A stretch of 63,974 nt of DNA, filler included, from Malassezia furfur (Eukaryota), in assembly GCA_052055015.1 (NCBI GenBank). It is 5 parts of 5 records of this genome, joined end to end, with 100 filler letters (N's around TTAATTAATTAA, not from the genome) between each part and the next. Parts side by side here need not be neighbours in the genome. Positions count along the whole stretch, not along the records: positions 1 to 13,643 come from JBQJIT010000309.1; positions 13,744 to 27,381 come from JBQJIT010000310.1; positions 27,482 to 41,087 come from JBQJIT010000311.1; positions 41,188 to 54,750 come from JBQJIT010000312.1; positions 54,851 to 63,974 come from JBQJIT010000436.1. One strand, 5' to 3'. Positions 1 to 63,641 of the stretch are shown here, one piece after another. Made by a program: the position numbers and the translations under genes. How positions within the stretch are numbered: position 1 is the stretch's first letter; each line of letters starts with the position of its first letter. The notes under the pieces were generated by a model. It was not told the origin of the DNA. It did not search any database and saw only the letters and a list, made by a program, of their open reading frames with translations.

Positions 1-1597
1 ACGCCGCGCGACGCGCACGGTCTCGCGGCGTGGGCAGCGTCGAGGTCCGCGGCGCACTGGAGGCGTCATCGGCGAGGCGCGTGCCCAGCCACGTCGTGCA
101 GTCCTCGTCGCGCTTGCGCCGCTTGGCGTCGCGCTCGGCGCGCGCGGCATCATCCAGGTGCTCGCGGCGGTACTTGGCGTCGCGCTGCTGCTTGTACGCC
201 TCAAACGGGTCCTCCACGATGTTCGTCTCGAGCACGCGGATCTCGCGCAGCGGGCGGTCCGTGTCGTCGCTCGGCACGTTCTCGAGCGCATCGAGCGTCC
301 GGAACGAGGCACTCTTCCCGGGCTCGCCCACCAGCCGCCCAAATACAGTGTGCTTCGTGTCGAGGTGCGGAGTCGCTCGGTACGTTACAAAGAACTGCGA
401 GCCGTTCGTGTTCGGGCCGCGGTTCGCCATCGACACCACACCCCGCGCCGTGTGCCGAAAGGCGCCGGGGCGCACCAGCTCGTCCTCAAACGGCTTGCCC
501 CAAATCGACTGCCCGCCCCGGCCCGTGCCCGTCGGGTCGCCACCTTGCAGCATAAAGCCGGGGATGTTGCGGTGGAACAGGGTATCCTTGTAGGCGCCGC
601 GGCGACACAGCTCCAGGAAGTTGTAACACTGCGTGAGCTCCGGCCACGTACCGTGCGCGGCGCCTTGTCGACGTGCAGCTCAATGTCCAGCGCACCAAAG
701 TTGGTCACGAGGCGCACGAGCGCCTTGGGGTGCTTGCTCGCACCCGCGACATGGTCAAACATCTCCGCCTCTTCGTCCACCTCGATCCGCTCCGTCTTGG
801 TGCGGGGGGTGAGCGACGACGAGGTAAACGAGGCGGCCGTACGGCCCGTCGACAGGTTGCTGAGCCGCGGCGCACGCGCTCCGGAGGCGCTCGACGCCGC
901 GCTCGCCGCCGGCGCCGCCTCCTTCGCATCGTCCGCTGCCGCATGCTGCCGCACCTGCGACAGGAGCGCGCGTGTGCTCCCGGTCGACATGTGCACCTCG
1001 TCGGCATGCTCGGTGGTGGCGAGCGTCAGCTTGTTTTGCACGTCTGTGGTCAGCACCCACATAGTACGCACGGTACATCTTTTGCATCGTCCGCCGTTCA
1101 GGATCGTGGGGGTCCTGAATCGTCAGCAGGTCGGCTTTGGTGAATGGCGTATCATCCACAAGGTCACGGAGCATCTTGGGCTTGAGGTTGAGCTGCTGCA
1201 CGGTGTCGTACAAATACACACGGCCCGTCGGCTTGATCGCCACGAGATGGCTGTGGTCGGTGAGGTCTTTGCACGACACGGGGTCGTACAGCCGCCCACG
1301 CTCGTTCCGCGCCATCTCCAGCGCAATCACCTCGTCGCGCGACGCAGGGCGCCCACTTGCGGGGCTCACATGGTACTTGTCCAGGAAGCGCTCCAAATTC
1401 GCACGCTCGTACACCAGCCCCTCGTCGGGGAGGCATGCAGGGACACGCCATGCCTCGTGCGTCAGCGCGCACATATCGAACGGCACCACGACCGCTGCCT
1501 CGGCCTTGCGCGCGCCAGTACTTGCACCGTGCCGCCCATACACGCCGCTGTGCTCCGACGGCGTGACAAACAGCTTGTCGTTCGTCCCATGGCCCAT
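1..1597 (-). CDS. U-box/RING-type cyclophilin PPIL2/Cyp8-like (3' end outside window)
   Basis: N-term [24 protein letters not shown] and U-box-like region; cyclophilin domain ([49 protein letters not shown]). Introns 1044-1071 (28 nt) and 629-651 (23 nt) restore the frame. Confidence 0.9.
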
Positions 1598-1609
1598 CGC
1601 GCCGACTCG

Positions 1610-2439
1610 ATGTGGAGGTTCGTGATGCACCTCGGCGGCGCGGCGCTCCTGCTCCTCGCCGCGGCGGGCGCCCAGGCGAACACGGAAATCCGCACGGTTG
1701 GGCCGCTGCTGTGCGAACTGCGCAACAATGCGCCGGGCGTCGATGCCAAGTTCTTGACCAAGAGCTGGTAAGTGCGCCGACTAACGCAGGCCGACCATGT
1801 CGCCGTCGCCGACGCCGCGGCGCTTCCACCTGCCGCGCACCTCGCACGGCGCTTGGGTCGCGCTGTACCCTGACTACGACGACCTCGAGACCGGCGTGCA
1901 TGTCTACCAGCGGAAAACGGGGTGGTGGGACGCGGCGCTTCTCCGCCTTCCAGCGTCCGTGCGCTGGTTCCTCACCCAGCGCTACCAGCTGCGTGTCTCG
2001 TGGCCCGCCAACGTACGTCGCCCCACTCACACAGGTACCAGCGACGTTCGCGATCGATGTACACACGTCCGATATGCTGGGCGGCGAGCTGGCGCCGGCG
2101 CCCAAGCCGTGCGAGCTTCTCCTTGTGCAGATTACCGCGCATGCGACGGGCGTGCCGCTGCACACCACGCCACACCGCACCCGCAGCACCTTCCTAGGTC
2201 TTGCGGAGCGCATATGGGGCTGGGCGGCGCCGAGCGGGGCGCACGACGCCGAGCCCCTCGTCTTTGACCTTACGTTCGAGCACGTGTATCTCGGTGCCAT
2301 CCCGTCGTCCTCCCTATGGATGATCGTCTATGCCGTACTCGCGCTCTGCGCCGCCCACCTCGTCTTTGGTGCGTTTGTGCGGCGCCTCGCGCTCTTCGGC
2401 CCCTCCCCGGACCCTAGGCAGGCACCCACACGTCCGTAG
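1610..2439 (+). CDS. Signal-peptide plus C-terminal TM protein, Pga1-like (GPI mannosyltransferase II co-activator family)
   Basis: Hydrophobic leader ending AQANTEIR, motif YQLRVSWPANVPATF, FDLTFEHVYLGAIP followed by a TM helix. Two 22-nt introns (1768-1789, 2013-2034) join three ORF frames. Start is 1610 or 1625. Confidence 0.6.
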
Positions 2440-2470
2440 TCGCCAAGTGGAGGTCCCACCCCGCTCCACG

Positions 2471-5400
2471 ATGGGCGCACGCGCCGCGTATGCGATCGAG
2501 CCGCTGGCGTCGGCGGCGCTCCCTCGGCATGCCGCACCAGGCTCGCCCGCCGAGCTGGGTCGCACGCTGCGGTGCGCTGCCGTGCACGACGTACATGGGT
2601 ACCTTGCGTCAAGCGACGGGTGCATCCACCACTATACCCTCCCATCGGACGCCGGCCGCGACGCGCTGGACGCTGCGCGCGACGCACCCGCTGCGCCGTG
2701 GCACTACGAAACCAGTGCCCAGGTCTCGCCCACCGGGAAGCCCGTCGAGCGTCTTGTCGTGTTTGCCGCGCTTGAGCTCGTTGCCGTGCTGTGTGGTACG
2801 TCGGCCGCTTACCCAGAAAACACGTTGCGCTTCTATACCTATCCGCACCTTGCGCCCGCGCCCACGGCGCTCGCGCCAATCCGCGGCGTTCAGGCGATCG
2901 TCGATGGGCCAGACATGGGCCACGATGACGACGCCGCGCTGGGGTTCGTGAGCCTGTGCCTGCTCAAGCGCAAGAAGCTGGTCCTCCTTCTGCTCGAGGC
3001 CCGCGGGTGGGCGACCGTCAAGGAGGTGCCCATTGCGCGCGACGCCTTCATTGCGCGGCGGTTTGACGACCGCGTGTGTCTCGCCACTCCGTCCGAGTAC
3101 AGCCTCGTGCACCTCGACACCGGCACCCAGACGCCGCTCGGCTTGCCCATCTCGCAGAGCACCGACGTGTCTTCGGCGCGCGTCCGGCCGTCGATCGTGC
3201 CGGTGGACATCGACGGGCTGCATGCGTTCCTCATCACGAGCCACTCGAATGCAGGCACGCTCGGCGCGTTCCTGCGCACCGACGGCGAGCCGACCGACAA
3301 GCTGCTCGAGTGGCCTGCGCACCCACGCGCGGTGGTGGTCGAACGAGGGCACATCCTCGCGCTCCTCCGCAACGACACGATCGAAGTGCACGACCTGCAC
3401 ACGCTCGCGCGCGTGCAGCAGCTGCACGTCGACGCCGACTCCGCGCCGCGGCACCTCTTCCACATTCCGGCGTCCAAGGCCCTGCTGCCGCCGCCGCCGG
3501 GCGACGACTTGGCGCGCGCCTCCGTCCACGTCGGGGCGCCCGACGCTGCTGCGCACGACCCAGGCGATACGGACGCGGCACCCTGGCCGCTTCCCGCCGC
3601 GGCCTACACCGCACACCACCGCCCGGTGCACACGCTGCTTGGCGCGAAGCATACGCTGGCATGCCTCGTGCAGCCAGCGAGCAGTACCGTCGCCTGGCAG
3701 TGCATGCGTGCGCACGACTGGGCGGCGGCCGACGCGGCTCTTGCTGCGGATATCGCGTGGGACGACGCGGCGTGCATCGCTGCGTCCTTCCTTGCCCTCG
3801 CGCATCTGCGCGCGACGCGGTTTGCGCGCGCGACGCCGCTGCTGGTGCGCGCACACACCGACGTGCGCCTCGTCCTCGACAAATACCCACGCGTGCGCAC
3901 TCTGCTGCGCCCCACGCACGTCGAGACGTACGCGGCGCTCGGCGACGCATGGCGCGCCCTGCCGACGGTCGACGAGGCCATCGATGCCAGTCTGCGGCAG
4001 ACGTACGGCGCAGCGCTCCTTGACGACAAGGGGGTGAAGGCGCTGCGGGCGCAACTGGCCGCACGCGCCGCAACCATGCTCGCGACACTCCTCGAGGCTG
4101 CCCTGGAACGCGACGCACAGCCACTGTACCACGCCGCGCTCCTCGCTCTGTGCCTCGACCGCGCACCCGACGCACCGGCCGCGACGCTCCGCGCCCATGC
4201 TGCCGGCGCGTCCATGGACGTCGCCGAGCGCATCCTGCGGCACGCGCACCGCTACGTGCTCCTCGCCCAGACGCTCGACGCACACGGCCGACGCGCCGCG
4301 GCCCTGCGCCTGCTGCGCGACGTGTACGACGGGCAGCTGTCGGATCGCGTGGATCGCTCGTCGCTCGATGCGATCGCCGAGGCCACCACGCGCCTGACGC
4401 ACGCCGACGACCTCATTTCCGCAGGGCTGTGGCTCGCACGCCACGATACGCCGCGCGGACTGCAGGTGCTGCGCCGCGTCGACTACCACGGCGCGGCATC
4501 CGAGCACGTCCTGCGCGCGCTCCGCCAGCTCGATGCGCATGCCGCCGAGGAGCTGCTCGAGCATATCGTGTTTACCAGCGCGGCACAAGTCGCGTCGCAG
4601 CACGCCGAGCTGTGTGCGCGGCTGGTGCAGCGCGCGGCGGACGGCGCGGCGCGCATGCCGCCGTACATGCCGGCACACGGTACCTGGCCTGCGCATGTTG
4701 CCCAGCACGCGTCTGTCGACGGCGCACGCTCGCGCATCAAGCTCATGGTGCTGTTGGCGCACTCCCAGGCGCTCGACCTCGAGGCGACGCGGGCGCTGCT
4801 CACGCCGCACCCCGCGCTGGCGTTTGAGCGCGCCATCGTCCTTGCGCGTCTGGGCCGCGAGACCGAGACGCTGCGCATCGTCGCACTCGACGTGCGCGAC
4901 GCGCAGTCTGCCGAGTCGTTCTGTGTCGAGGGCCACGTCTTGTCGCTTGACGCGACGCGCCGGCTCGCCAAGGACGCGGCGATCGCATCCTACGCACGGC
5001 TGGTCGACCGCCGTGCAGCCAAGCCGGAGCATGCACAGGCGCCACGGCGCCTGCGCACGCTCCTGGCACTCTACCTCGACGATGGCGCACAGCGCGACGA
5101 CGTGCGCCCGGCGCTCTTGCGCCTGCTCAACTGGCACGCCGACCACTTTGTACTGGCCGACGTGCTGCCGCGGCTGCCGACACACTGGCCGGTGCGCGAC
5201 GTGCAGCCGTTCCTTCTTCGTACACTACGGGCGCAGACACACCGCCGGCACCTCGCCGAGGTCGTCAAGAGCGTCGCCCTCGCGCGCAGCGTCGCGCTCG
5301 GCGAGGAGCACTGGGAGGCCGTACGGTACGTTGATCTACTTACGCAGCGGACTCGGTGGCGTCATTCAAGACGACGACGACGACGACCACAGCGCGCTCG

Positions 5401-5471: not shown

Positions 5472-5498
5472 CATCGCACGTGAGTTGTCGCCCAGCGC

Positions 5499-7394: not shown

Positions 7395-7397
7395 CGA

Positions 7398-8647
7398 CTA
7401 CATCCTATTCCGCCGGCCGGGCACCGCAAACGCCTGTCCGTCGCTCCATAGGTCCTGGCGATACACCTGGCTGCCGCACGACGGCGGCTGGAAATCAAAG
7501 TAAAACAGCCCGGGATCCAAGCGCGGCGCACTCGGCTCGTCCTCGGGGTCGTGGTAGGGCGCGACGAAGGGGTGCGCGAGGCACTCGTCCACCGTCATGC
7601 GGTCCGCGGGGTTGATCGTCACCGTGCGGGCGAGGAAGTCGAGCGCCTCGGCACCGACGTCGGGCAGCAGCGTCGACCACGCACGCGGCTTGCGCGGCGG
7701 CATGTTCATCACGTACTCGAGCGCGCGCGGCGCACACGTGGGGCGCAGCGCCTCGAACGACGGCGTACCGAGCACGTCGAGGATCAGGCTGAGCTGATGG
7801 TGGTAGTCTTTGCCAGGGAACAGCGGCTCGCCGCACAGCATTTCGTACACGGTGCACCCAATCGACCAGATGTCGACCGCCTTGGTGTACTGCCGGCTCG
7901 ACAGCATGATCTCCGGCGCACGGTACCACCGCGTGGCGACGTACTCGGTAAGCATGTGGTCGCCCGAGTTCGGTGGGCCCGCGCCAATGCTGCGTGCAAG
8001 ACCAAAGTCGCACACCTTCAGGTCGCAGTTCGCGTTGACGAGCAAATTGCTCGGCTTGATGTCGCGGTGCAGCACGCCAGCGTCGTGGATGGGCTTGAGC
8101 CCACGCAGCGTCTGGTACGTGAAGTACTGCGCATGGTCGTAGCTCAGTGGCTGCGAGCGCAGCACGCGGTACAGGTCCGAGTCCATGTTCTCCTGCACCA
8201 GATACACCTCCTGGAACGACGCGCACTCGCCCGGGATCACGACGTCCAGCAGCCCGATGATGTTCTCACACGTGGTCTTCTCGCGGAAGAAGCGCAGCAG
8301 GCGCAGCTCACGCAGCGTGCGCACAGCAAGCAGCGAGTGCTCAAACGGCGACACACGCTTCACCGCGACGCGCCGGCCGGTCTTGCGGTGGAGCGCCGCA
8401 AACACCACGCCGTAGCCGCCCTCGCCGAGGATGCCGTCGACGTAGTAGTCGGCACCGATATCGTCACGCGCCTTGCGGATTGCCATCGCACGCCGCTCTT
8501 CCTTGCGGGTCTCGGTGACCTGCGCAAGGCGACGCACGTACGCAATTGTCGGGCCGGTCTGCTTGGCGCTGCGTCAGGATGGGGGACCTACCGGTGCACA
8601 TCCTTGTTCACATCGTCCCACGACGCCTGTGCCTGAGGACACAGCAT
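7398..8647 (-). CDS. Fus3/Kss1-type (TEY) MAP kinase
   Basis: GEGGYGVV, VAVKR, HRDIKPSNLL, DFGLAR, MLTEYVATRWYRAPE. Inferred exon 1 (MLCPQAQ...) joins via 23-nt intron 8569-8591. Confidence 0.92.
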
Positions 8648-8859: not shown

Positions 8860-10158
8860 CTATTGGCGTTTGGCGGCACGCGTCGCGGCGGACTGTCGGC
8901 GCTTTTCGCGCAGCTCCAGAAAGAGGCCCGCGAATACGGTCGCGACGCCGACCCACTGCAGGCGCCGCAAATGGTGCTGGTACACCAAAATCGACAAAAG
9001 CATCGTAAACAGCTTGCGCGTGACCTGGGTAAGCGCATGTCACGCACCGTGATCGAGACGAGCGTCAGGCTTCCGAAGCGCTCCAACGTCTCGAAAATCG
9101 CGATTTGGCCCGCGGCGCCCGCCGCTGCGTAGAGCAGCACATCGCGCAGCGCATCCGGATGGCGCGCAAGGAACTGCACGCCGCCCACGAGCTGCGGCGT
9201 GAGCGACACGCTTGCCGGCGCACGCAGGCCACCAGCCAGCACCGCGGCGATCCAGTGGGGATGCACGAGCTCGGCCAAGGTCAGGCGCACGCGCGACACC
9301 ACCCACGGCCCCAGGCCGTCGGGCAGCAGCAGCGCCAGGGTCATGTACGTCGCCGAGATGGCGTTCATGACGAGCATCATCTGCGTCCCCGTGACAATCT
9401 CTGTGCCGTACGTAGCAAAGACGTCGTCCTGCGTGCTGTTGATCGTGCCGTCAAGCAGCAGGTGGATGGCCAGCAGCGCCAAACCCACACGCCCACTGCC
9501 GCTCGGCCCGCGCTTCTTGGGCGACGGCTTGCCGAGCGCCATGAACATGTACACGCCGAGCGTTACCAGCAGCACCACCAGGTACTTGTACGCGGCAAAC
9601 TTGCGCCGGTACAGCAGCACGTTCATCAGCAGCACCGGAACCAGCTTGCTCGACTTGGCCAGCGTAATCGCGGGGAAGGAGAGGAAGCGCAGAGACACGA
9701 TGCTCAGCCACGAGCCGGTCGACTGCATTGCCGAAATTAGCACATAGCGCTGTGCGAGCGGCGACAGGTACCGCGACAGGCCACGCAGCGGCGCGTCCGC
9801 CGGGCGCTGGCCCCGCGCAACCAGCACACGCTGGCATCCACGCGGGGTCAGCACGTCGAGGCCGAGGCGCGCGAGCAGCGACTGTCTGCCGCGTGCATGG
9901 CGCGTACGCAGCAGCAGGTACACCGAAGCGGCGATGCACGAGAACAGCGCCTGGATCGCATTGAGCAGCACGCCGTACGTAAAATGCTCGACCTCCCCAA
10001 AGGGGTCGAGGGGGTCGTCGCCCGTCGAGTATGCGGTGCTGGTGACTGGGTAAGCGACGCGACGCACTCTTTTCCTGCAGCAGCCCCCACACAAGGAACA
10101 TGGCATAGATCGTCAGCGCGCACAGCGCGAGCTGCACGAGCCCTGTTCGCTTGGCCAT
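8860..10158 (-). CDS. HUT1: UDP-galactose/UAA-family transporter
   Basis: [70 protein letters not shown]. Introns 10046-10067 (22 nt) and 9025-9047 (23 nt). Confidence 0.9.
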
Positions 10159-10243: not shown

Positions 10244-11693
10244 CTACACGAGGCTCTTGCGCCAGGTCTGCTCAAAGGCACGGATGTTGCCGTTGCTCTC
10301 GACCAGCTTCTCGACAAACAGCTCGTCGTTTGGCGCGGACCACAGCATGTTCTCGCGCGCAAGCAGGTCCAGCAGCGTCGCAGCCTCGGGGCGCGACAAG
10401 CGCTCACTCACGTCCATGAGCGCAAACTGCGCAGCACGCGCGTTCGCCAGGTGCTGCTCGTGCATCTGGGTATACGCGTGCGGCTCCTCAACACGCGTCG
10501 GCGAGGTCGGCGAGGTGAACAGCTCCTTGACGCGGCGCCATGGCACCGACGCCGCCTCGCCGCTGGCCGCCTCGCGCAGCGCCACCAGCAGCTCGGGCGG
10601 CGCCGTAAAGTTGGCGTGCGACATGCTCATGGTCGCCAGCACTGCGCCACGCTGCACACCAGCACCCTGCTCAGGTGCTACAAAGGTGTTCAGCAGGCTG
10701 CGCGGCACGGCCATCTCAAAGGCGTGCAGCGGCACAAAGTCCGCGTCGCGGTATCGCGTCGTGCCAAACAACACCTGCACATCGTCCACCGCAACCAACA
10801 CAGGGACCTCGGTCTGCTGCGCGAGCGTCGACCAGACCAGGTCGAGCGCCAGCTGACGCGTCACGGGGCTGCTGTGCTCCTTCAGTACGCGGTCCACCAG
10901 CGAGGCGAGCGTCGCGCCGGACGCCACGACCTCGGTACCCTCCACGTTAAGCGCCCGCTGCGTCTTGATACGCTCAAACACGCGGCGGTTTGCCTGCGCC
11001 ATGGCCGTGAGCAGCTCGTCGACGATCGTCGGCTGCAGGTAGGTCTGCAGGCCGGCGTTGTATGTGTACGGGCTCGAGGAGTCCACCCAGGTGATCGCAC
11101 GCGGCACATACACCACCGCCCAGCCGGACGAAAGCGCGTGGGCGACCGCCTGCACGAGGTAGGTCGACTTGCCGCACCCCGGCTCGCCGACCAACAGCTC
11201 GCGCGCACCGCCGTCTTTGGCAGCGCGCTCGAGGCGCTCAATCAAAGCAACGCTCGCCTTGCGTACCACCGAGCGTGGCCGGGGCTGGAGCGCGTGGCGC
11301 CGCGCCATCTCCTGCGGCAGGCCGAAGCGCGCGAGCGCCTTGAGCTGCGCATTCGACCACGCGAGCGGCGTCGCGAGGGCCTCGGCAGAGATCGCCGAAG
11401 CATCTAGCTCGAGCAAATCCGACATGTCCGGCGCCGGCCGGAAGTGGGGCGAGGTCTTGGCGAGCGACGAGGCGGTCTGGGTGAGCACGGGAGATACGTA
11501 CGTCGACGCCGCCCTTGCGACGGCCGCCGGTGCTTCGTTCGCCGCTGGCGCCCTTGCGCACCGCGACCTTTTTCTTGGGCGCGACCTTTCCGGCCGCACA
11601 CACGTGTGCACTGGTCGACAGCGGCGCGGCGTGCGGCACACGCGCGCCGCGCACCGCCGTGCCGAGGGTGCCGAGCAGTCCCACTCCACGCAT
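10244..11693 (-). CDS. RSM23: Mitochondrial small-subunit ribosomal protein mS29 (DAP3)
   Basis: Arg/Ala-rich presequence; P-loop LVGEPGCGKST, GWAVVYVP, PVLVAVDDVQ, ESNGNIR. Intron 11477-11501 (25 nt). Confidence 0.88.
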
Positions 11694-11772: not shown

Positions 11773-12712
11773 ATGAGCTTTTTCAACACGCTGGGGTAGG
11801 TGGGCGTGCTGACGCAGGCGTACGATGGGCCGCAATGGCCGGCAGAAGCGGCGCGGCATGCCGGGTGCGGAAAATGATCCGCAGGGCGCGCTGGCCGAGT
11901 CGATGAACGACACGCACCTCGCGGCGCAGAAACCGCTGTACCTGTGCCAGCCGTTTGTGCGCAGCGCGCTGATCAAGGGGTCGTTCCGCACGATCGTCGC
12001 GCTGCCCAAGTATGTGCACCCGTACGAGTGGATCGCGATGAACTGTACGTGGCGCACTGACCCAGTGTTCGACTTCTTCCACGACCTCAACCAGTTCTGC
12101 GGGGTGACCACCGAATTCTGCACCGTGCACAACTGCCCGACGATGAGCGCGGGTGTGGGGTACGTTGCGTCCTGACACAGCCTCGACTATACGTGGGTGG
12201 ACGTGAACCGCAAGCGCATTCACCTGCCCGCACCGCAGTACATCGACTTTGTCATGACGTGGATCGGCCATCTGCTCAACGACGAGGCCGTCTTCCCGAC
12301 CAAGTCCGGGCGCGAGTTCCCCACGAGCTTCCCGACGACCGCGCGGCAGATGTACAAGCAGATGCTGCGCATCTTTGCGCATCTCTACCACGCCCACTTC
12401 CCGCTCCTGCTCCACCTCAGCTGTGAGGGGCATGTGAACAGCCTGTTTGCGCACTTCATCGCGTTCGGCAAGGAGTTCGACCTGTTCGACTTCCGCGAGT
12501 TCAAGGGCAACGGCGACCCGGCGCTCGGCGCGCCCGCCTGTATGGGCGGCATCGGCGGGCCAAACCACCCCGCGATCGAGTCGCCCGACGGCCGCGGCGG
12601 CCACGGCGCCCTGGTGGGGCCCACGGGCGAGCGGCAGCCGTACCCTGGCGTGTGCGACCTGATCGAGCGCTGGGTGGAGCGTGGCGTGCTCCCAAAAGAG
12701 GTGCTCCAGTAG
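11773..12712 (+). CDS. MOB2: MOB kinase activator, Mob2-like
   Basis: LYLCQPFVRSALIKGSFRTIVALPKYV, CPTMSAG, LPAPQYIDFV, FPTKSG, QMLRIFAHLYHAH. Introns 11796-11817, 12045-12065 and 12160-12180. Confidence 0.9.
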
Positions 12713-15284: not shown

Positions 15285-15610
15285 CTACACGATGCGTTCC
15301 CGGGACTCGGTGCGCGCAGGTGCCTCCTGCGACGGCTCCTGGATATCGCCGAACCCGAGGTTTTTCATGTCGTCGCGTTCCATCAGGTCGCTGCGTGAGT
15401 GGCCGTGCGCACGTACTTGTCCATGCGGCACTGCAGGTACTTTTTGCTCAGGTGCCGGCACGCGCCGTTGTCGTTCTTGTTAGCCTTGAGGCACTGCAGG
15501 TATTCTTTCATGGCCTCCTTGCAGTCCCCATAGTGGTCGAGCGGGAACGAGCCGCGCTCGGGGGGGAGCACCTGGAACATGGAAAACGTCGGGGGCCGTC
15601 CAAACGACAT
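15285..15610 (-). CDS. COX19: Cytochrome c oxidase assembly twin-CX9C protein
   Basis: [43 protein letters not shown]; after the 26-nt intron 15391-15416 it continues [13 protein letters not shown]. Confidence 0.93.
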
Positions 15611-17290: not shown

Positions 17291-17882
17291 TTAGTAGACG
17301 CCCGACTTGGCGATCTTGATCTGGCTCTTGGGCTTGCCGCTGCCGGTGCCCTCGGCCTCAACGGCCTTGACGACGTCCATGCCGTCGACGACCTCGCCGA
17401 AGACGACGTGCTTGCCGTCGAGCTGCGGTTAGTACAAGCGTGCATAGGCGTGTGCGTACCCAGGGGGTCACCACGGTGGTGATGAACTGTAGCAGTGTTA
17501 GTCTCCATACATCCACAAAGCATACGTACGAACTGCGAGCCGTTCGTGTTGGGGCCGGCGTTGGCCATCGAGAGCAGGCCAGGCTTGTTGTGCTTGAGGT
17601 TGAAGTTCTCGTCAGCGAACTTCTGGCCGTAGATCGACTTGCCACCGGTACCGTTGCCGGCGGTGAAGTCACCGCCCTGGAGCATGAAGTCGGGGATCAC
17701 ACGGTGGAAGTTGGAGCCCTCGTAGCCGAAGCCCTTCTCGCCGGTGGCGAGCGCACGGAAGTTGGCCGCAGTCTTGGGCACAACACTGGGTCAGGCCAAG
17801 GAACCTACTCGTCAAAGAGCTTGAACTTGATGGTGCCGAGGGGCGAGCCGTTCTTGGTGATGTCAAAGAAAACGTTGGACAT
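17291..17882 (-). CDS. CPR1: Cyclophilin A peptidyl-prolyl isomerase (Mala s 6 allergen homologue)
   Basis: [76 protein letters not shown]. Introns 17786-17808, 17487-17529 and 17423-17459. Confidence 0.96.
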
Positions 17883-50118: not shown

Positions 50119-50860
50119 CTACTCGCGCAACGTACTCCCGATGGAAAAGGGGAAGGGCATCAGACTCGCATCGCCCACCGCCGGCAGCTGCGCCTGATGT
50201 TCGTTCGCAAAGGTCAGTGCGGCCACTGCGTCAGTATGCCACATACATAGGAAAGGACTCAGCTCCGGCGTCACACTCCCCTGTGCCGCATCGTACACAA
50301 TGCGCACACTGAGCAGCCACTGCTCAAATGCCTCGGGCAGTGTCTCGAGCGCCTCGTCGCGCGTCAACACACGTCGTGGCTGGCCTCCACGCGCATCCGA
50401 CTTACCACCTGCTAGGGCAGACGCGAGCCAGGAATAAGGCGAGTGGAAGATGGGGTACGATGGCGGCGCGCGGTCCTTCGCGGCAGGCGGCGCTGAGGGC
50501 GACCGCGGTGTTTCGGCCGGCTCGTGCCAGGACACAAGGATATCCACGAGCGCCGTGCCCTCGCGCTTCACCTCCTCATCCGTACGCGCAAGAATCTCGG
50601 CGGTGGTCTCGGCGACGCGTTTCTGCATCGTCGCATCCAGGACATGCGGCTGCGTCAGACGACACGACGCACCAACTCCACGCCGCACAGCTCGACGGTC
50701 GTCGGCTCTAGTGTGCCGAGCAGCCGGAAAAAAAGGACCGTGTGCAGCATGCCCTCAATTACCTCCTCGGCCTGTGCACGCGCGAGCGTCTGGATGAGTG
50801 TGCGGTACACACCACCTCGTGCGTAAACAGCGGCGGCGCGCTGGGGCGCATCGTGGGCAT
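50119..50860 (-). CDS. ATG101: Autophagy protein Atg101
   Basis: Spliced product: EVIEGMLHTVLFFRLLGTLEP..FEQWLLSV..FANEHQAQLP..PFPFSI. Introns 50790-50812, 50650-50672 and 50226-50246. Confidence 0.82.
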
Positions 50861-50885: not shown

Positions 50886-51673
50886 CTACGGCAGGGGAAA
50901 CGCGGCATGCCGCTCGTAAAACGCGAGCAGCGCCTGGGGGCATCGGCGCCGCACAACAGAAGTGGGGTATACAAGACGAGCCCCGTCCTTGAATGCGAGG
51001 TGAACATAAAGCGTGGACGACGCGTCGCGCTCCACACGAGCAATTTCGTCAACAAACGGCTCCCAGTCCTCGAGCGCATCGTATGTCGCGCGAGGATTGG
51101 CAGCGCTGCCGCGCGCAGGTAATGCATCGGACGCATTTTGTCGACGCCGTTTGGGAGTGCCTTGCCGCACCGGCGAAGGATGCGCAGCCGGTGACCTCGT
51201 GGCAGACGACGCGGAGGCCTGTCTCCGCGATGCACGCTGAGTGCGCGCCGAGACGGTCGACGAGAGTGGCGACGATGCCGCCGAGGATGTCTGCGGGGGG
51301 CTTGGTGGCTCGTGTGCCGACGGAATCGCGTCAGAAGCGGACTCGTATCGCGCGGCTTTCGCCTGCATGCTTCGGATCCGTTGCATGGCTTCTTCGGAAG
51401 ACATCGCCTGGCGTTCGGTCCAGTACTTGAACACCATATCTTCTGCGTCGATCGAGTGTTCCTGTGTGAGCCGCGGCACTTACCTCGGGCTCCCAGGAAA
51501 ACACGCTGTCGGGGTCTTTCCATTTAATTAGGTATTCAAATCGGTCCTGCGTCAGCATGCGCGCATACGAGTTCGGTGTTGTGCCGGTGCAGGATAATCG
51601 CTTCCACAACCGCTTCTTCCATGTCGTCAGGCTCTGACGCGCTCGGCGGCGCGCGTCCTTTCGACGCGGCCAT
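50886..51673 (-). CDS. HP1/Swi6-like chromodomain plus chromo-shadow protein
   Basis: VVEAII..FEYLIKWK..SWEPEEH..MVFKYW, then a hinge, then DWEPFVDEI..RRRCPQALLAFYERH. Introns 51547-51568 and 51462-51483 (22 nt each). Confidence 0.85.
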
Positions 51674-51706: not shown

Positions 51707-52780
51707 ATGAGCCCCAAGTCGGCGGCTCGTGCGCAGCTGCGCGCGCTCGAGGCGCAATTCTACCAGCAGTTCTCCGTACCGGGCGAAGGGTCTGATGCAG
51801 GCGGACGGTCCAGCGACGTCGCATCAGAGGCGCATAGCGATGATGATCGGCCTTCATCCGTGCACCACAGCGACGCGCAAACGGCCGACGATGACGACGC
51901 GAGCGAAGAGACGAGTGATGACGACGAAGACGACGACGACGAAGATGAAGAAGAACAGGATGAAGATGACGATGATGGCGACGATGATGCAAACGACGAC
52001 GAGCTCGACGATGACGAGGACCTTCTTCAGAGCGCCATGACGCAGCCGTCGGCGCCTTCGGCGTCGGCGGCGTCGCGGCGACGACCGGTCGAGACCGTGG
52101 TGTTTTCCGAGTCGCGTAGCGCCCCATCTGGTGCATCGGTCCCCGCAAGTGTGCGGCGCAATTTTATGGTACGTGTGAGTCTGATTCAGTCCTCGAAAAT
52201 CGAGAAAATCAACGCCCAAGAGACGGCGCCGCCCGCCGCAGGCTCGGACGACGACGAGGAGGGCGAGGAGGACCAGCGTGCAAATGACCGCAAACTTGCC
52301 GAGCTACTGTCCACATCGCTGTTTGCGCCCGGCACGAGCACGCACAAGCGCAAGCTAAACACCACGACCAACGAGACTCTCGCACGGGTGATGGAGCTGT
52401 CGACGTCCGACACGCTGCATGCGCATGCGGCGGGCAGTGGGTGGGGCGAGAAGCAGCTGCGTGCCCAGGAGCTCGGCAAAATGCCCGCGCGGATCCGCTC
52501 TGGCCTGCGGCGGGCGGCCGGCGAGCGGCGCGAGCGCGACATTGAGCTGCAAAAAGAGCTGGGTCTATGGAATCCCCGCTACCAGAACCATGCGCAGCTG
52601 AGCCGCGGGTCGGCGACCGAGCGTGGTTCGCGCCCGACCGAGCCCAAGAAGCGCATGCGTGGCATCGGCTCGGGCGTCGGCTCGTTCCGCAACGGCACGC
52701 TGCACCTCTCCGAGGCGGACGTGCGCCGGATCCAGGGCCCTCCACGCGGCCAGGCGCGCCGCCGCGGCAAAAAAAAGTAG
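51707..52780 (+). CDS. Faf1-like 40S biogenesis factor
   Basis: Acidic tract, RRNFM|SSK (21-nt intron 52169-52189), KMPARIRSG, RMRGIGSGVGSFRNGTLHLS. Confidence 0.65.
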   Translation: MSPKSAARAQLRALEAQFYQQFSVPGEGSDAGGRSSDVASEAHSDDDRPSSVHHSDAQTADDDDASEETSDDDEDDDDEDEEEQDEDDDDGDDDANDDELDDDEDLLQSAMTQPSAPSASAASRRRPVETVVFSESRSAPSGASVPASVRRNFMVRVSLIQSSKIEKINAQETAPPAAGSDDDEEGEEDQRANDRKLAELLSTSLFAPGTSTHKRKLNTTTNETLARVMELSTSDTLHAHAAGSGWGEKQLRAQELGKMPARIRSGLRRAAGERRERDIELQKELGLWNPRYQNHAQLSRGSATERGSRPTEPKKRMRGIGSGVGSFRNGTLHLSEADVRRIQGPPRGQARRRGKKK

Positions 52781-54850: not shown

Positions 54851-57128
54851 CGGTGCGGGCGCCGGTCGAGCCGCACCCCCGCTACGACCCCGCGGCGCCC
54901 GGTGCGGTGGTGATGCGGCGCCCCTCGGAGAAGCACCAGGCGCTGTACGGCCGCGGGATGCCCGTGGTGGACGTGGTGCTGGACCCCGAGCTGACGTCGG
55001 TGCTGCGCCCCCACCAGGTGGACGGTGTGCGCTTTCTGTACGAGGCGGTGACGGGCATGGCGGCGCTGGAGCACGGCCATGCGTCGCCCGGCCAGGGCGC
55101 GATTCTGGCCGACGAGATGGGCCTCGGCAAGACGCTGCAGACCATTGCGCTGGTCATGACGCTCCTACGGCAGAGCTGCTACTTTTCCTCGGTGACGCAG
55201 GGCACGATTGAAAAGGCGCTCATTGTGTGCCCCCTGACGCTCGTGGTGAACTGGAAGCGCGAGTTCCGCAAGTGGGTCGGGCGCAGCTCGATCGGCGTGC
55301 TCGCCGTCGAGGGCGACGGGCGCAGCGAGGTCGAGCGCTTCGTCCAAGGGCGGCAGTACCAGGTGCTGATCATCGGCTACGAGCGCCTGCGCAGCTGTGC
55401 GGCGCAGCTCGCGCGCGCGCACCCGCCCGTGGGCCTGGTGGTCTGCGACGAGGGGCACCGCCTCAAGTCCAAGGACACCAAGACGACCAAGTGCTTTGAC
55501 GCGTTCCAGACGCGCCGCCGCGTGCTGCTCACCGGCACGCCGATCCAAAACGACCTGCGCGAGTTTTACTCGATGGTCGACTTTGTGTACCCCGGCATGT
55601 TTGACCACTACGCCGTGTTCAAGCGGGTGTTTGAGGACCCGATCATGCGCAGCCGCGTGCAGCACTGCACGCCGCAGGCCGCGGCGCTCGGGCGCGCGCG
55701 CAGCCAGGCGCTGCAGCTCGTCACCAAAGGCGTCATTCTGCGGCGCACCGCCGACCTGCTCGCGCGCTACCTCCCCCCCAAACGTACGTTGCGCCGCTCA
55801 CCCAGACGAGGCCGTGCTGTTCTGCGGCATGGCGCCCATCCAGCGCCGGCTGTATGCGCTGTGCGCCGAGTATGTACAGTACCAGCTGGCGTTCAGCGAG
55901 GAGCGCAACTACCTGCCGTTCATCACGCTGCTCCGCCAGCTGTGCAACGCGCCCGAGCTCGTCGCGGACGCGGACGCCGGCGCCGACGCGAGCACTGCGG
56001 CGCTGCGGCGCGCCGTCGGCGACGTGTACCGCCGCGCCCACGTGCGCCGTGCGGCGCGCGTCGAGAGCGGCAAGCTCGCCGTGCTGCATGCGCTGCTCAC
56101 CGCCGTGCGGCAGCACACGAGCGACCGCGTGATTGTCGTGTCCAACTTCACCGCGACGCTCGACCTGCTCCAGCGCTACTGCCACGAGCACCACTTTCCC
56201 ACGCTGCGCCTCGATGGCAAGACGAAGCAGGACGCGCGCGCGAAGCTCGTGAGCCAGTTCAACCGCGCGGCGCGCGACGACGCCGACGACGCGTTCGTGT
56301 TCCTGCTGAGCTCGCGGTCGGGCGGCGTCGGCCTCAATTTGACCGGCGCCAACCGGCTCGTGCTGTTCGACAGCGACTGGAACCCGTCGACGGACCGGCA
56401 GGCGATGGCGCGCATCCACCGCGACGGGCAGACCAAGCCGTGCTTCATCTACCGCCTGCTCACCGTCGGTGCGATGGACGAAAAGATGTACCAGCGGCAG
56501 ATCACCAAGATCGGCCTCAGTGACGCGCTCGTCGGCAGCGCCTCGCAGTCCACCGACCAAGCCGCGGCCTCGGGCGACTCCTTCTCCCAGGAAGAGATCC
56601 GCGACATTTTTACGTGGCACCCCCACACGCGGTGCCTCACGCACGACCTGCTGCGCTGCCCGTGCGACGGGCGCGGCACACCGCCGCCCGCCGCACCCGA
56701 CACGGAGGCGGACACCGCCGTGCCGCGCATGCGCACCGGATTCGTGTCCGCGGCCGACGTGCAAAAGGAGAGTGTGCTGGTACGTGCGCGCCGACTCACC
56801 CCAGGAACGTGCGCAGCGCCAGGAACTCGCGCGGCAGCTTGGCGACATGCGCCACTACGACTTTGTGCACCACGCCACGGCCCTTGTGCATGACCCGCTG
56901 CTCCAGCACCTCGCCACGCCGCCGCCCACGGACGGCGGCCGCGCCGAGGCCAAGGAGCCCGTCGTGTCGTCGCTCGCGTCCTACGACTCAGATACCCCCT
57001 ACCTCGACCAGCTCGTGGAAAAATACACGTCTAGCACCGTGCCGGCGCTCGCCGCGCACGCACTGCAGTACGTGTTCGCCAAGCCGCCCGCGCCGTCCAC
57101 GCCGAGCGCGGACGCCCCTGTAGCCTAA
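54851..57128 (+). CDS. RDH54: Rad54B/Rdh54-type SNF2 DNA translocase (5' truncated)
   Basis: LRPHQVDGV, ILADEMGLGKT, CDEGHRLK, TGTPIQNDL, SGKL, GGVGLNL, DSDWNP, QAMARIHRDGQ. Introns 55784-55805 and 56780-56804. Confidence 0.88.
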
Positions 57129-57158: not shown

Positions 57159-57792
57159 ATGCCGCTGAGTGCCGAAGAGTACGACGCGCTCACACCCGAC
57201 GCACAGCGCGCGCACGACGCCGCCGAGGCGGAGCGCGAGCGCGCCGAGCAGGCGGCGCTCCCGTACCACTGGACACAGGCGCTCGACCATGTCGAAGTGA
57301 GCGTGCCGGTGCCTGAGGGCACGCGCGCCAAGCAGGTGCGGGTCGACTTGGGCCGCACACGCCTCTGCGTCGTGGTGCAAGGCACGACGGTCGTCGAGGT
57401 ACGTGCTGCATTGCTCACCCAGGGCGAGCTCGCGAAACCCGTGCGCCCGGACGACTGCACGTGGACGATTGGTACGCGGCGCGCGACTGACGCAGACGAC
57501 GGCACCACGCTCGTGATCCACCTCGAGAAGGAGAACCAGAACGAGTGGTGGGCGCACGTCGTGACGCACCACCCACGCATCGATACCACCAAGATCCGGC
57601 CCGAGGACTCGAAGCTCAGCGACCTGGATGGCGAGACACGGTACGTGACGACTGACGAGCCTAGCGCTATGGTGGAAAAGATGATGGTACGTACGCTGCA
57701 CTCACCGCGCAGTACGACAACCGCCAAAAGGTACGTGGTCCCGTCTTACTCGGCAGCTTGCGCAGCGTGCGCCTGACGCTCCACCCATGTAG
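57159..57792 (+). CDS. NUDC: NudC co-chaperone (CS domain)
   Basis: [55 protein letters not shown]. Five introns of 24-26 nt. Confidence 0.9.
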
Positions 57793-57848: not shown

Positions 57849-57874
57849 ACACACACACACACACACACACACAC
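57849..57874. repeat. (AC)13 microsatellite
   Basis: Visible directly. Confidence 0.95.
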
Positions 57875-58054: not shown

Positions 58055-58557
58055 TTACAGACGGCGACCACGGCGACCACCCTTCCGGCGAGTCGAGTCC
58101 GAGGGCACGGGCGTCACGTCCTCAATGCGGCCGATGCGCATGCCGGCGCGAGCCAGGGCGCGGAGCGCGCTCTGGGCACCCGGGCCCGGAGCCTTGGAGC
58201 TCACACCACCGGTGCCGCGGATGCGGATGTGGACGGCGGTGATGCCGACCTCCTTGCAGCGCGCGGCGCAGTCCTGCGCGGCAAGCATGGCAGCGTACGG
58301 CGACGACTCGTCACGGTCGGCCTTGACCTTCATACCGCCGGTAACACGGACGATGGTCTCCTTGCCGGTGAGATCCGTCACATGGACAAAGGTATCGTTG
58401 AAAGAGGCGTAGATGCTGTCGCGGTTAGCGTCCGTTCCACGTTGGTGCGCCCCTGTGGGCGACCCAAAAATACGTACTGGGCGACGCCGAACACAATCTT
58501 GCCGTCGTCGACGTTGGTGCCGAGGGAGACCTCGTTCGTGCGGACCTTGGGCGCCAT
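58055..58557 (-). CDS. RPS14: 40S ribosomal protein uS11
   Basis: [52 protein letters not shown]. Coding intron 58416-58477; probable 5'UTR intron 58558-58594. Confidence 0.96.
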
Positions 58558-58658
58558 CTGACGGTTAGCGTGTGCGCTTGCGAAGAGTACCCACGTTGAG
58601 ATTACGATGGACAAGTCGAAGACGAGCGCCGCGGTCCTTTTCCAGCGCGCACTTATGT

Positions 58659-58763: not shown

Positions 58764-59107
58764 ATGGTGCGTAGGCCCGGCGTGCGCCGCGTGCGACGAA
58801 CAGCATACTGACCGCCCGCCAGCCCCGTCAGGTTACGGATATTAAGAACTTCTTGGCGATTGCCAACCGTCCCGACGCCAAGACCGCGCGGGTCAAGAAG
58901 ACGCTGCTCGCCAAGGGCACCGTCCAGACCAAGTTCAAGGTCCGCTGCTCGCGCTTCCTGTACACGCTCGTCGTGGACGACGTCGAGAAGGCCGAGAAGC
59001 TCAAGCAGTCGCTCCCGCCCAGTACGTGTCGCGCGTGCGCCGTGCAGCATACTGACCACACAGAGCTCGCCGTGACGGAGATCGGCTCGAAGCACCTCAA
59101 GAAGTAA
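58764..59107 (+). CDS. RPL38: 60S ribosomal protein eL38
   Basis: [39 protein letters not shown]. Introns 58767-58822 and 59022-59063. Confidence 0.95.
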
Positions 59108-61024: not shown

Positions 61025-61105
61025 CTTGGCTGTCGCGGCCGCGAGCAGGGCGTGACCAGCCCCGCCATCGGGGGACGTTATGTAAGCCACGTGGCGTGGT
61101 GCGTG

Positions 61106-62770
61106 CTACAGAAACTCGAGGCCGATGCCAAACTGGAGGCCCTTGCGCGTGCCGTCGGAGCGGCGCGCGAGCACGGGCAGGCCAAAGTTGAGCTCGAGGC
61201 GCACCGGGCCCTGCTGGAAGAGCAGGCCGAGGCCCATCGATGCTGACGGCTGCAAGAGCTCGGTATAGGACGCGGGCGTGCCCGGTTGATCTGGGTCAGT
61301 ACGCGTAGGGCGCGGCCACGTACAGCTCTGGGCCTGCGTCAGCTGGCCGGCGTTCGCAAACGCGTGCACCTTGAGCGGCCAGTCGGCGCGCGCCGGGATG
61401 GGGGCGAGCAGCGAGGCCCCTGCGGCCCAGTACGCGTCGCCGCCGAGCGAGTCGTACGCCTCGCGCGGCCCAAGCGAGTTGAGGCGGAACATGCGCACGT
61501 CCGTCGGCCCACCCAGCATGAAGCGGTCGCTCAAGCACGCGGGCCGCCCGTCGAGCGTGTGCATCCACCCTGCACGCGCGCCCAGGGACCAGGCCCAGCC
61601 TGCGCCAAAGGCGCGCGCGACGGTGGCATAGCCCTCCGACTTGACAAACGACGTGTCGCCGCCGAGGCCCGCGTACTCAAGCATGCCGCGCCAGTAGCTC
61701 CCGGTGGTCGTCATAAATGGGTCGTTGCGGGTATCGAGCTCCGCCGAGTACGTCAAGGCAGACTTGAACGAGGGTTTCGCAAGACGCCGGATCCTGGGGT
61801 CAGTAAGCGCCGACGTACGCGACCGAGGCCCGCGGCAGCAGGTGGTGGAAGTGGCGGTGGCTCGCCTCGTAGGCCAGCTCGTTGCGCACGCCATCCTGGC
61901 CCAACATCTGCGGTAAGTAGGCGGCACGTACCATGCACGCGGCGCGGAGCGTATGCAGACCCTCGTGTGCACTCAGGTAGCCGGTCAAGTCGCGGTGCTG
62001 TGCGAGCGCCGACACGTTCGCCCAGACGTCGGGCGACGCAAGCACGGGCGTGGAAAACACGGCGTGGTACGCATGCCGCGTGCGGGTACCAAGCGTCGCG
62101 CTGCCCTCGAGCGTTTCGGCGCCGCCAAAGACGTTGCGGACCTTGCCCTGGATCGACGCGGTGCCCTCGCTCTGCCCGACGCTTGTGTTGGTTTTGAGGA
62201 AGAAGCGCTTGGCGGGCTGCACGCGCAGCACCAGGTCCACGTCCTCTTCCGGGTGTCCGCTCGACAGCTGCGACGGTTCGAGGCTCGCGGCAATGTCGCG
62301 GACCAGGTCGAGGCGCGCGAGGTCGCCGCCCAGCGCGGTGGTGATGTCGAGCAGCGACTTGAACGTCGCGGGCTCGCCGGGGAGCGCGTGCGATGCGCGC
62401 TCGCCGTACCACCACGCGCTGAGCGGTGTGACACCGCTGCTCGCATCGACGTACGGGCGGCACAGGCCCGCAAGGAACGACGGCCGGACGTTACGCAGCC
62501 CCTGGATGCGCACGGCGCACAGGCGGAGCGTCGGGGGCTCGCCCGCAAGCCACTGGAGTGAGCGGCAGGTGCACGTACGGGCTGCTGGAATTGTTCGATG
62601 GCGCGCGGCAAATTGTGCTCAACCTCCTTTGGCGGCGCCTCCGGCACGGGCGCGGGGTCCGTGGGCGGCGGCGCCTCTGCCGGCGGCGCCTCTGGTGGTG
62701 GCGCAAATAGCGGCTCTTCGGTGAGCTTGCGTGCGGCGATCGCGTCACTCAGCACGTCGTTCGCCGTCAT
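61106..62770 (-). CDS. SAM50: Mitochondrial outer-membrane beta-barrel assembly protein
   Basis: RNVFGGAETL, DTRNDP, DRFMLGGPTDVRMF..LGP..DSLGGDAYWA, RLELNFGLP..GLQFGIGLEFL. Four introns of 24-33 nt. Confidence 0.92.
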
Positions 62771-62877
62771 CTTCCACCCGCCTGCGAGCCACGTCCGCGA
62801 CGGCGGTTCGGAAGCACGTGGCACTTCCTCGCGCCGTCTGCGTCTGCGTCTGGGTGCACGGCCGCGAGGCGAGCGCG

Positions 62878-63641
62878 ATGTTTATGCTGTCCGAGATCGA
62901 GGTACGGGGCGTGCTGACGCAGGACACCATCCGTGTGGACCCCAAGCACTTTAGCAAGGAGAGCGCGCAGGCGATCACGGACCAAATCAATGCGAAATAT
63001 GCGAACCGAGTACGTGACGCGCGCCTGACCGTGTGCAGATCTTGCCCGACGTAGGGCTGTGCATTGCGGTGCACGACGTGCTGGACGCGAGCGAAGGGCG
63101 CGTGCGGTGGGGCGACGGGTGCCTGTACTACACGGTGCGCTTCCGCCTCGTCGTCTTCCGCCCGTTTACGAACGAGGTGCTGGTCGGCCGCATCAGCTCG
63201 TCGACGCACGAGGGGCTGCGCGTGTCGATGGGCTTCTTTGACGAGATCTACGTCCCGCCGCACCTGATGCCGACGCCGCACGCGTTCGACTACCAGGAGC
63301 AGGCGTGGTTCTGGCTGCTGGACCCCGCGACCGAGGAGCACAGTGCGGATCCGCTGCTGTCTGCGCCGGAGGAGCGCATGTACCTCGACGTCGGTGAGAC
63401 GATCCGCTTTGCGATCGAGTCGGACCACTTTTACGACGTCGAGCCCGGGCCGGCGCTCGGCGAGGGCAAGCTCGGCGAGACGCCGAGCGGGGTGGGCAAT
63501 ATCCCCGGCGCGCCGGGGACGCAGGGCGCAGCGAATTATTCGTCGTACCGGATTACTGGATCTATTGCAGGGCAGGGTCTGGGGCTAGTCTCGTGGTGGG
63601 CGGGCGCCGAACAGGTATCGGTCGATGGAGCAGGAGAGTGA
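62878..63641 (+). CDS. RPC25: RNA polymerase III subunit C25
   Basis: MFMLSEIE|DTIRVDP..INAKYANR|ILPDVGLCI..GDG..FRLVVFRPF..GFFDEIYVP..GLGLVSWW. Introns 62902-62922 and 63010-63038. Confidence 0.93.

Follow-up and report, generated by a model that had tools for sequence, protein, structure and literature searches.

The protein-coding genes of a 63,974-nucleotide (nt) stretch of Malassezia furfur DNA (the whole of which is referred to here as the window) are interrupted by very short segments, mostly 21-26 nt in length. With a probability of about 0.95, we read these segments as ordinary U2-type GT-AG spliceosomal introns of a Malassezia rich in guanine and cytosine (GC), reduced nearly to bare splicing signals, on the strength of the DNA and of comparison with related proteins and loci. 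The first-pass annotation had proposed pervasive spliceosomal introns of this size and named 13 segments; all 13 were found to have GT...YAG ends, the length given for them and support from homology, and each has a GTRNGY-type donor and a branch-like YTNAY motif in the orientation of the interrupted gene. In agreement with that annotation, removal of the segments restores proteins that are colinear with relatives, with solved structures or with intron-less orthologous DNA. Its classification of the segments as spliceosomal-type introns is upheld by the signals, by the restored proteins and by variation in presence, absence and length between species. A typical intron comprises four elements: a donor of six bases, usually GTACGT; ~5-10 spacer bases; the CTNAC branch motif; and a YAG acceptor ending 5-6 bases past the branch A.

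Both strands of the window were scanned for the pattern GTRNGY..YTNAY-N0-6-YAG at lengths of up to ~100 nt, with 50 dinucleotide-preserving shuffles as the control. There were 44 matches at 21-26 nt compared with 5.5 expected, approximately an eightfold excess, distributed as 7, 11, 9, 6, 6 and 5 matches at 21, 22, 23, 24, 25 and 26 nt, respectively. Beyond this peak the counts were flat, at ~1 per length. For the wider range of 19-28 nt, 50 matches were observed, against a shuffle mean of 9.06 and a shuffle maximum of 19. No match of exactly 20 nt was identified on either strand of the window. Eight matches of 15-19 nt were rejected, as they were either nested in a longer match sharing the same acceptor or unsupported 15-mers.

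A frame test was applied to 59 non-overlapping motif candidates of 19-37 nt, with the best-coding frame judged independently on each flank. Codon log-odds trained on 11 long exons with Pfam hits were used for this purpose, because the high GC content leaves open frames uninformative. The chance expectation is one third for each outcome. Among the 39 candidates with a length not divisible by three, 33 shift frame as splicing predicts, three keep the frame and three do neither; where the coding signal was strong on both flanks, the predicted shift was seen in 22 of 23. An exon-intron parser whose length prior was flat between 15 and 300 nt returned 56 introns, including 42 of 33 nt or shorter. 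The parser fused two cyclophilin introns into one of 107 nt, missed the introns beginning at 629, 39955, 51462 and 51547, and invented introns of 123-286 nt where genes were merged; several of its long predictions are visible gene-merging errors.

A curated set of 43 introns was assembled, 26 by homology (continuity of a homologue, an orthologue, a Pfam profile or a Protein Data Bank (PDB) chain) and the other 17 by the frame test or partial domain evidence. The median length is 24 nt and the mean 26.3 nt, the commonest length is 22-23 nt, the shortest supported intron is 21 nt, and 38 of the 43 are 30 nt or shorter; these length statistics cover one window only. A peak below 30 nt dominates the intron population, with 21-26 nt introns making up 33/43 of the curated set and 32/56 of the parser predictions.

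All 43 curated introns have GT...AG ends, and together they are 61% GC. The donor is GTACGT in 26, GTGCGT in six, GTAAGT in three, GTAGGT in three and another sequence in five. Donor position +4 is C in 34 introns and G in only three, despite the genome being rich in both bases, and U1 or U6 pairing in this lineage may be the cause of this preference. The branch motifs are CTGAC (16), CTCAC (14), CTAAC (5), CTTAC (5) and others (3). This count is partly circular, because the motif belonged to the search pattern for most introns; the enrichment over shuffles provides non-circular support. The branch A is followed by 5-11 nt, and by exactly 5 nt in 25 of the 43. In introns of up to 26 nt it occupies positions 16-21 of the intron, most often 17-19; the distance of 15-17 nt from the 5' G originally proposed is accurate for the low end, while the actual range is 15-20 nt after the G. 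Nine of the 43 introns have a length divisible by three and eight of these lack an in-frame stop; in a set that is small and biased against such lengths, this gives no sign of the shortage of stop-less introns of this kind that is reported for Paramecium.

The gene at 11.8-12.7 kilobases (kb) had been called MOB2, and this identification was confirmed, as its last exon shares 90% identity with MOB2 of M. obtusa, followed in similarity by other Malassezia, Tilletia and Ustilago. With three segments removed from the + strand, the MOB2 model is gap-free against the Malassezia, Tilletia, Ustilago and Sporisorium proteins. Introns 1 and 3 belong to the 13 segments originally named. For intron 1 (11796..11817, 22 nt), splicing yields an N-terminus that matches the Malassezia, Ustilago and Sporisorium proteins, and retention leads to an immediate TAG. 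Intron 2 (12045..12065, 21 nt) is in frame and without a stop, and its seven residues are missing from 9/9 covering homologues. Intron 3 (12160..12180, 21 nt) contains an in-frame TGA; the Pfam Mob1 profile passes from position 60 to 62 across it, in agreement with the homologue alignment.

Three Malassezia-like contigs are syntenic with window positions 1161-13369 and allowed the same introns to be followed between species. The comparative loci were obtained from one metagenome scan and differ in GC content (L001, 63%; L004, 66-68%; L017, 52.5%); L002, L003 and L005 are near-duplicates of L004. MOB2 intron 2 corresponds to 23 nt in L001 and 122 nt in L017 and is absent from L004, and intron 3 corresponds to 24 nt in L001 and is absent from L004 and L017. 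The annotated MOB2 protein of M. sympodialis (P0015), to which the L001 exon is identical, skips the 23-nt L001 segment at the position of 12045-12065. In the gene at 1589-2439, both introns named at first pass, 1768..1789 and 2013..2034 (+, 22 nt each), have a counterpart at the same position in L004. The first introduces an in-frame TAA if retained and is 27 nt in L004, with no match in L001 or L017; the second is 24 nt in L004, where it contains stops, while L001 matches its upstream side only and L017 has no match.

In the CNH-domain gene, the in-frame, stop-less 21-nt intron 2796..2816 (+) is absent from both L001 and L004, where the seven codons are missing and the DNA runs colinear with the spliced product; L017 has no match. 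Towards the C-terminus of the same gene, the spliced form at the originally named 22-nt intron 5326..5347 (+) aligns to L001 and L017, which are uninterrupted there, with scores of 84.3 spliced vs 75.9 bits unspliced for L001 and 70.1 vs 53.5 bits for L017. The UAA-family transporter gene contains two of the 13 named segments. The 23-nt intron 9025..9047 (-) is crossed by the Pfam UAA profile from 270 to 272, is 24 nt in both L001 and L004, and is absent from L017, which is colinear; the 22-nt intron 10046..10067 (-) is ~23 nt in L001 and 45 nt in L017, and L004 is colinear without it. The 25-nt intron 11477..11501 (-) in the gene encoding DAP3 (mitoribosomal mS29) is absent from L001 and L004, both colinear with the spliced product, and is represented in L017 by a 24-nt (8-codon) insert containing a stop. 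Overall, 7/10 comparable introns are absent from at least one of the three loci, and the orthologue is then colinear with the spliced product. The remaining comparable introns show length differences that are not divisible by three, e.g., 22 vs 27 and 22 vs 24 nt, and are therefore non-coding sequence. Within the same region, a protein kinase gene has, close to its 5' end, a 23-nt intron (8569..8591, -) that is supported by the frame test and carries a TAG in frame if retained.

The other six segments of the original 13 lie outside the syntenic region. In the PPIL2-like U-box cyclophilin gene, removal of 629..651 (-, 23 nt) joins residues 303 and 304 of human PPIL2, and the frame test agrees. 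In the cyclophilin A gene, the exons on either side of the 23-nt intron 17786..17808 (-) correspond to residues 1-24 and 26-110 of 2cfe_A, a solved Malassezia-type cyclophilin chain. The spliced N-terminus of the CSN1-like RPN7/PCI gene, starting from the ATG at 39906 and omitting 39955..39977 (+, 23 nt), aligns to four annotated Malassezia orthologues. The splicing of this intron had been called obligatory, which holds by conservation of the N-terminus only, because an upstream ATG at 39866 keeps the frame open on retention. Two 22-nt introns of the HP1-like chromodomain gene, 51462..51483 and 51547..51568 (both -), yield a spliced model that is gap-free against chromodomain proteins; the 63-nt exon between them (51484-51546) encodes 21 residues matching Pfam Chromo 15-36 and is confirmed by homologues. 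In the SNF2-family helicase gene, the SNF2 profile passes from 232 to 235 across 55784..55805 (+, 22 nt), resuming in the frame that splicing predicts.

Further introns were supported in these and other genes. The ceramide synthase (Lag1/TLC) gene on the - strand contains six, of 25, 25, 23, 25, 30 and 28 nt, and the spliced model is gap-free against eight homologues. These are 21383..21407 (25 nt, homologue alignment) and 21337..21361 (25 nt), which flank a 21-nt microexon (21362-21382) whose inclusion matches the homologues; 21177..21199 (23 nt; Pfam TLC 82 to 83, homologue alignment); 21047..21071 (25 nt; Pfam TLC 116 to 118, homologue alignment); 20810..20839 (30 nt, in frame and stop-less, with its ten residues missing from 8/8 homologues); and 20708..20735 (28 nt). 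A single 71-nt intron at 21337-21407 was rejected, as it would delete conserved residues. PDB searches with the Lag1 C-terminus and with Cmc1 returned nothing usable. In the NudC gene (+), two in-frame, stop-less 24-nt introns, 57399..57422 and 57472..57495, coincide with gaps of seven and eight residues, respectively, in 1wfi_A and 3qor_A. A 26-nt intron of the same gene (57687..57712) is supported by the frame test, with short flanks, and by the spliced reading, and lies between microexons of 22 nt (57665-57686) and 18 nt (57713-57730). A (CA)n microsatellite was observed at ~57850-57875 (+), just downstream of the NudC gene.

The ARP6 gene (+) contains a 24-nt in-frame intron at 16715..16738, at the site of an 8-residue gap in human ARP6 (6igm_G), and a 26-nt intron at 16875..16900 with frame-test support and an in-frame TGA. 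In the Cmc1 gene (+), the 24-nt in-frame intron 25282..25305 carries the motif, and positions 6-48 of the Cmc1 profile cover 50 residues when the segment is read through, an excess of ~8; the 28-nt intron 25397..25424 is supported by the frame test and has an in-frame TAG. The 29-nt intron 63010..63038 (+) of the gene for RNA polymerase III subunit Rpc25 is crossed by Pfam SHS2 from 30 to 32. The frame test also supported a 28-nt intron in the PPIL2-like gene (1044..1071, -; strong coding flanks, also found by the flat-prior parser), a 26-nt intron in a CHCH-domain gene (15391..15416, -; flanks of 14.8 and 18.8 bits), a 32-nt intron in an RWD/DFRP gene (37638..37669, +; in-frame TGA), and a 25-nt intron at the SNF2 gene C-terminus (56780..56804, +; 17.1 and 12.7 bits). 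The same test supported two 23-nt introns in the ATG101 gene (-), 50650..50672 (17.2 and 19.1 bits; in-frame TGA) and 50790..50812, where the ATG101 profile begins at the exon start, and two introns in the Sam50 gene (-), 61794..61818 (25 nt; in-frame TGA) and 62553..62578 (26 nt; 16.1 and 11.6 bits).

The longest introns, of 37-62 nt, are found in the genes for cyclophilin A (17291-17882, -), RPS14 (58055-58594, -) and RPL38 (58764-59107, +), and their branch sites are mostly CTAAC or ACTGAC; these highly expressed genes retain somewhat longer introns. By reading of the sequence, cyclophilin A has a 43-nt intron at 17487..17529 (-), exon 2 ending at residue 110 of 2cfe_A, and a 37-nt intron at 17423..17459 (-), the downstream exon beginning at Pfam Pro_isomerase position 117, with a 27-nt microexon (17460-17486) between them. 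In the gene for ribosomal protein uS11 (RPS14), Pfam S11 starts right after a 62-nt intron (58416..58477, -), which is also supported by the reading frame and a coding-potential scan. The gene for ribosomal protein eL38 has a 42-nt intron (59022..59063, +), before which 62 of the 68 positions of the eL38 profile are found and whose donor is the only one that keeps the frame.

Several segments are retained as candidates. Motif together with a stop in an otherwise continuous coding frame suggests a 30-nt intron at 18532..18561 (+, TGA). Motif and in-frame stop likewise suggest introns of 30 nt in a DnaJ gene (22290..22319, +, TGA), 33 nt at 37733..37765 (+, TAA) and 30 nt at 37993..38022 (+, TAA). 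Motif-based candidates comprise 23 nt at the end of a PX-domain gene (31375..31397, +; outcome "other" in the frame test), 21 nt in frame in the ATG101 gene (50226..50246, -; flanks coding in one frame), 21 nt in frame at 52169..52189 (+; weak upstream flank), 24 nt in frame in the Sam50 gene (61908..61931, -), and a possible last intron of 26 nt in the NudC gene (57731..57756, +; frame test "other", 6-codon flank). Another NudC candidate (57641..57664, +, 24 nt) is suggested by decay of the NudC alignment at the donor and by the spliced reading. A strong motif marks a candidate 33-nt in-frame intron in the Sam50 gene (61291..61323, -), within a variable loop of the Sam50 alignment. A 37-nt candidate in the 5' untranslated region, abutting the RPS14 ATG (58558..58594, -), comes from the motif and sequence reading, and a 56-nt candidate right after the eL38 ATG (58767..58822, +) comes from the flat-prior parser, with the eL38 profile starting after it. 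The 21-nt match 1959..1979 (+) is weak, has a GTGCGC donor, is unused in the model that matches L004 and is probably coding.

Other motif matches were rejected. The segment 9192-9223 is coding, as it leaves the frame unchanged and is crossed by the Pfam UAA profile without a break; 23892-23921 aligns residue for residue to DDX47; and 20873-20900 is coding in Lag1 according to the homologue alignment. The match 59035-59063 has the wrong donor, the real intron being the 42-nt one at 59022-59063. The matches 48844-48876 and 13469-13502 have weak or negative coding flanks, and the former is also antisense to a + strand peptidase gene.

Several considerations weigh against the interpretation of the segments as ordinary introns. 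Every conclusion is based on DNA, homology and literature rather than on RNA, the level at which splicing efficiency, branch use and retention would show. The candidates were generated by the motif, so that introns whose signals depart from it would escape and the lengths are possibly biased short. The curated set under-samples introns with a length divisible by three, which are beyond confirmation by the frame test. Four motif matches of this size class proved to be coding sequence or to have the wrong donor, and 14 more candidates are backed by the motif alone or by the motif and an in-frame stop. An explanation in which the segments are not introns, and represent assembly errors, pseudogene frameshifts, or programmed frameshifting or bypassing, is nevertheless hardly credible. 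While removal of a short segment can restore a frame trivially, the segments share a three-part splice signal eightfold above chance, the genes are conserved housekeeping genes, and independently assembled genomes of other species have, at the same positions, either an intron of another length or no intron at all.

It is also conceivable, if somewhat unlikely, that the introns are real and require an adapted spliceosome, as U1 and U2/SF3b could not share one intron in which the branch A is 15-20 nt after the G. The geometry is as this proposal states, with the branch A at 16-21 and only 5 nt beyond it in 25/43, the bias at donor +4 (C in 34/43, G in 3/43) hints at a lineage-specific preference, and a comparable steric, adapted-spliceosome idea is already in print for Stentor (PMC9505925, 2022). 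However, the signals are canonical (GTRNGT, CTNAC, YAG), and among the proteins encoded in the window is a spliceosomal cyclophilin of the PPIL2 type, a factor that belongs to complex spliceosomes. Stentor has introns of 15-16 nt and copes with a branch A at position 10 of its 15-nt introns with all small nuclear RNAs (snRNAs) and most core proteins conserved (PMC9505925); the position of 16-21 in Malassezia is therefore not extreme. Rfam detected no snRNA genes: the window yielded only two transfer RNAs (tRNAs), and five related loci yielded nothing. Quite improbable is the suggestion that some of the stop-less in-frame introns (21, 24 and 30 nt) are facultative, with frequent retention adding 7-10 residues as alternative coding segments. 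Eight of nine supported introns divisible by three would escape nonsense surveillance on retention, because they lack an in-frame stop, and the public predicted proteins P0144 and P0147 (HP1-like) and P0121 (Lag1) have insertions at such sites. These database proteins are, however, only predicted. The extra residues are missing from every well-aligned homologue, the splice signals of the segments are at full strength, translation of the segments in frame gives sequence resembling the out-of-frame junk of other introns, and the set is small and selected.

Conventional U2-type splicing is the simplest reading, because the signals are canonical, and the introns would be removed as lariats by a conventional spliceosome. 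The most likely cause of their short length is genome compaction, with deletions trimming them to a floor set by the donor-to-branch geometry, and the same introns vary in presence, absence and length between Malassezia species. A stronger version, which we consider unlikely, would assign to the furfur group a hard 21-nt floor, a branch A never before position 16, an acceptor 5 nt on and a tolerance of stop-less in-frame introns, and would imply stepwise or remodelled donor and branch recognition, with fidelity independent of nonsense surveillance. If this version were true, a transformable yeast would be the best experimental system for minimal-intron splicing, and one overlooked by intron-evolution reviews.

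Very short introns are already known for the genus, and nothing here is new in kind. Published reports give 5,350 introns with a mean of 30 base pairs (bp) for M. sympodialis, 99% of them supported by RNA sequencing (RNA-seq), in an annotation curated with RNA-seq and proteomics (PMC5389616), and an average of 37.2 and a median of 30.0 for M. restricta (PMC9241646). A review mentions "very short introns" in Malassezia genes (PMC7426719), and gene finders in published Malassezia annotations were set to minimum intron lengths of 10-20 nt. The M. sympodialis, M. restricta and M. arunalokei annotations thus describe the same tiny GT-AG kind of intron in the same genus. L001 likewise has a motif peak, at 23-25 nt, with 25 matches of 19-28 nt in 20.5 kb. 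The novelty claimed for the length class is largely removed by these annotations, the L001 peak and M. sympodialis MOB2; the accompanying statement that novelty is one of degree is borne out. The window sits 1-2 nt below the L001 peak, and this species by the same margin below its best-documented relative. The window has a mode of 22-23 nt, a median of 24 and a floor of 21, whereas published Malassezia papers give means or medians only. The literature searched contained no stated 21-26 nt length mode for Malassezia, the length distribution in Fig. S8 of PMC5389616 being outside the text covered, no stated 21-nt floor or 5-nt branch-to-acceptor spacing, and no discussion of how Malassezia introns are spliced.

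Not all members of the genus share the peak. L017 (52% GC) shows no peak at 19-28 nt, with two matches in 20.5 kb, and has introns of 45 and 122 nt where the window has 22 and 21 nt. This is in line with the older M. globosa annotation, which gave an intron average of 76-79 bp (PMC4634964), and indicates that intron length varies within the genus.

Outside the genus, the size class matches the ultra-short introns of ciliates, as the first reading had suggested (33/43 at 21-26 nt vs ~25 bp). Paramecium and Nyctotherus have ~25-bp GT-AG introns with a narrow single peak and a near-fixed branch A (PMC5014332), so that ciliates likewise have narrow, single-peaked lengths near the splicing minimum. 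Ciliate introns are, however, AT-rich with a weak branch consensus, whereas those of the window are 61% GC with a strong CTNAC and GTACGT, and the Stentor branch A at 10 contrasts with 16-21 here. A 2026 paper on animal introns names ciliates, Microsporidia, dicyemids and myxozoans as exceptions to a "30 bp minimum"; Malassezia is missing from that list, in the part of the paper accessible to us, despite its published 30 bp mean (PMC13644364). Microsporidia, dicyemids and myxozoans are of similar size class but are reduced parasites, and microsporidian splicing is reported to be inefficient, with a median of ~25% (PMC13644364). Cryptococcus and other basidiomycetes have in common with the window the GTNNGY donor, the CTRAY branch and many introns per gene, while their introns are two to three times longer; the mean in Cryptococcus neoformans is 63 bp (PMC8476143). 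The same 2021 survey of fungal introns describes M. sympodialis as intron-poor, and its available text does not mention the intron length of this species (PMC8476143).

Eukaryotic housekeeping genes, as judged by Pfam, lie close together along the window, whose GC content is 60-69%. Its CSN1-like protein is 92% identical to that of M. brasiliensis, and on sequence similarity and the synteny with the three Malassezia-like contigs the host is a Malassezia, of the furfur/brasiliensis/obtusa group. Four filler blocks (13644-13743, 27382-27481, 41088-41187 and 54751-54850), each consisting of two runs of 44 N around 12 bases, are spaced ~13.7 kb apart and interrupt genes, including a SET/MYND open reading frame (ORF) and the start of the SNF2 gene. 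The synteny to the three other Malassezia contigs stops at ~13.37 kb, shortly before the first block. The PPIL2-type U-box cyclophilin gene occupies 20-1597 (-) and was aligned to the human spliceosome component, and a gene for a YTH-domain RNA-binding protein is located at 33915-36722 (-); both are typical factors of complex spliceosomes or mRNA processing. The two tRNA genes identified by Rfam, 20382-20473 (+) and 37356-37451 (-), are 92-96 nt long, and ARAGORN assigned no anticodon to either, which suggests tRNA introns. A mitochondrial-type HSP70 gene is present at 31615-33660 (+; E 8e-262). The opposite strand at 31636-33780 (-) matches Pfam PF10712, "NAD-specific glutamate dehydrogenase" (E 4e-164), and is very likely not a gene; this family is suspected to derive from antisense Hsp70 ORFs.

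Errors at the tiny introns are visible in public protein predictions for related species. The predicted M. psittaci MOB2 (P0004) has an aberrant N-terminus, the predicted M. psittaci Lag1 (P0121) has a 17-residue insertion replacing the microexon, and two HP1-like predictions (P0144 and P0147) have insertions at both junctions that resemble read-through introns. The database copy of the MOB2 of the window (P0001) consists of the last exon only. Gene finders and read mappers at their default settings fail on introns of 21-30 nt and microexons of 18-27 nt. Malassezia, a fungus that can be cultured and transformed, has introns as short as those of Paramecium but is absent from the recent surveys of ultra-short introns as far as their accessible text extends; it could be used to determine the smallest donor-to-branch and branch-to-acceptor distances that a spliceosome accepts.

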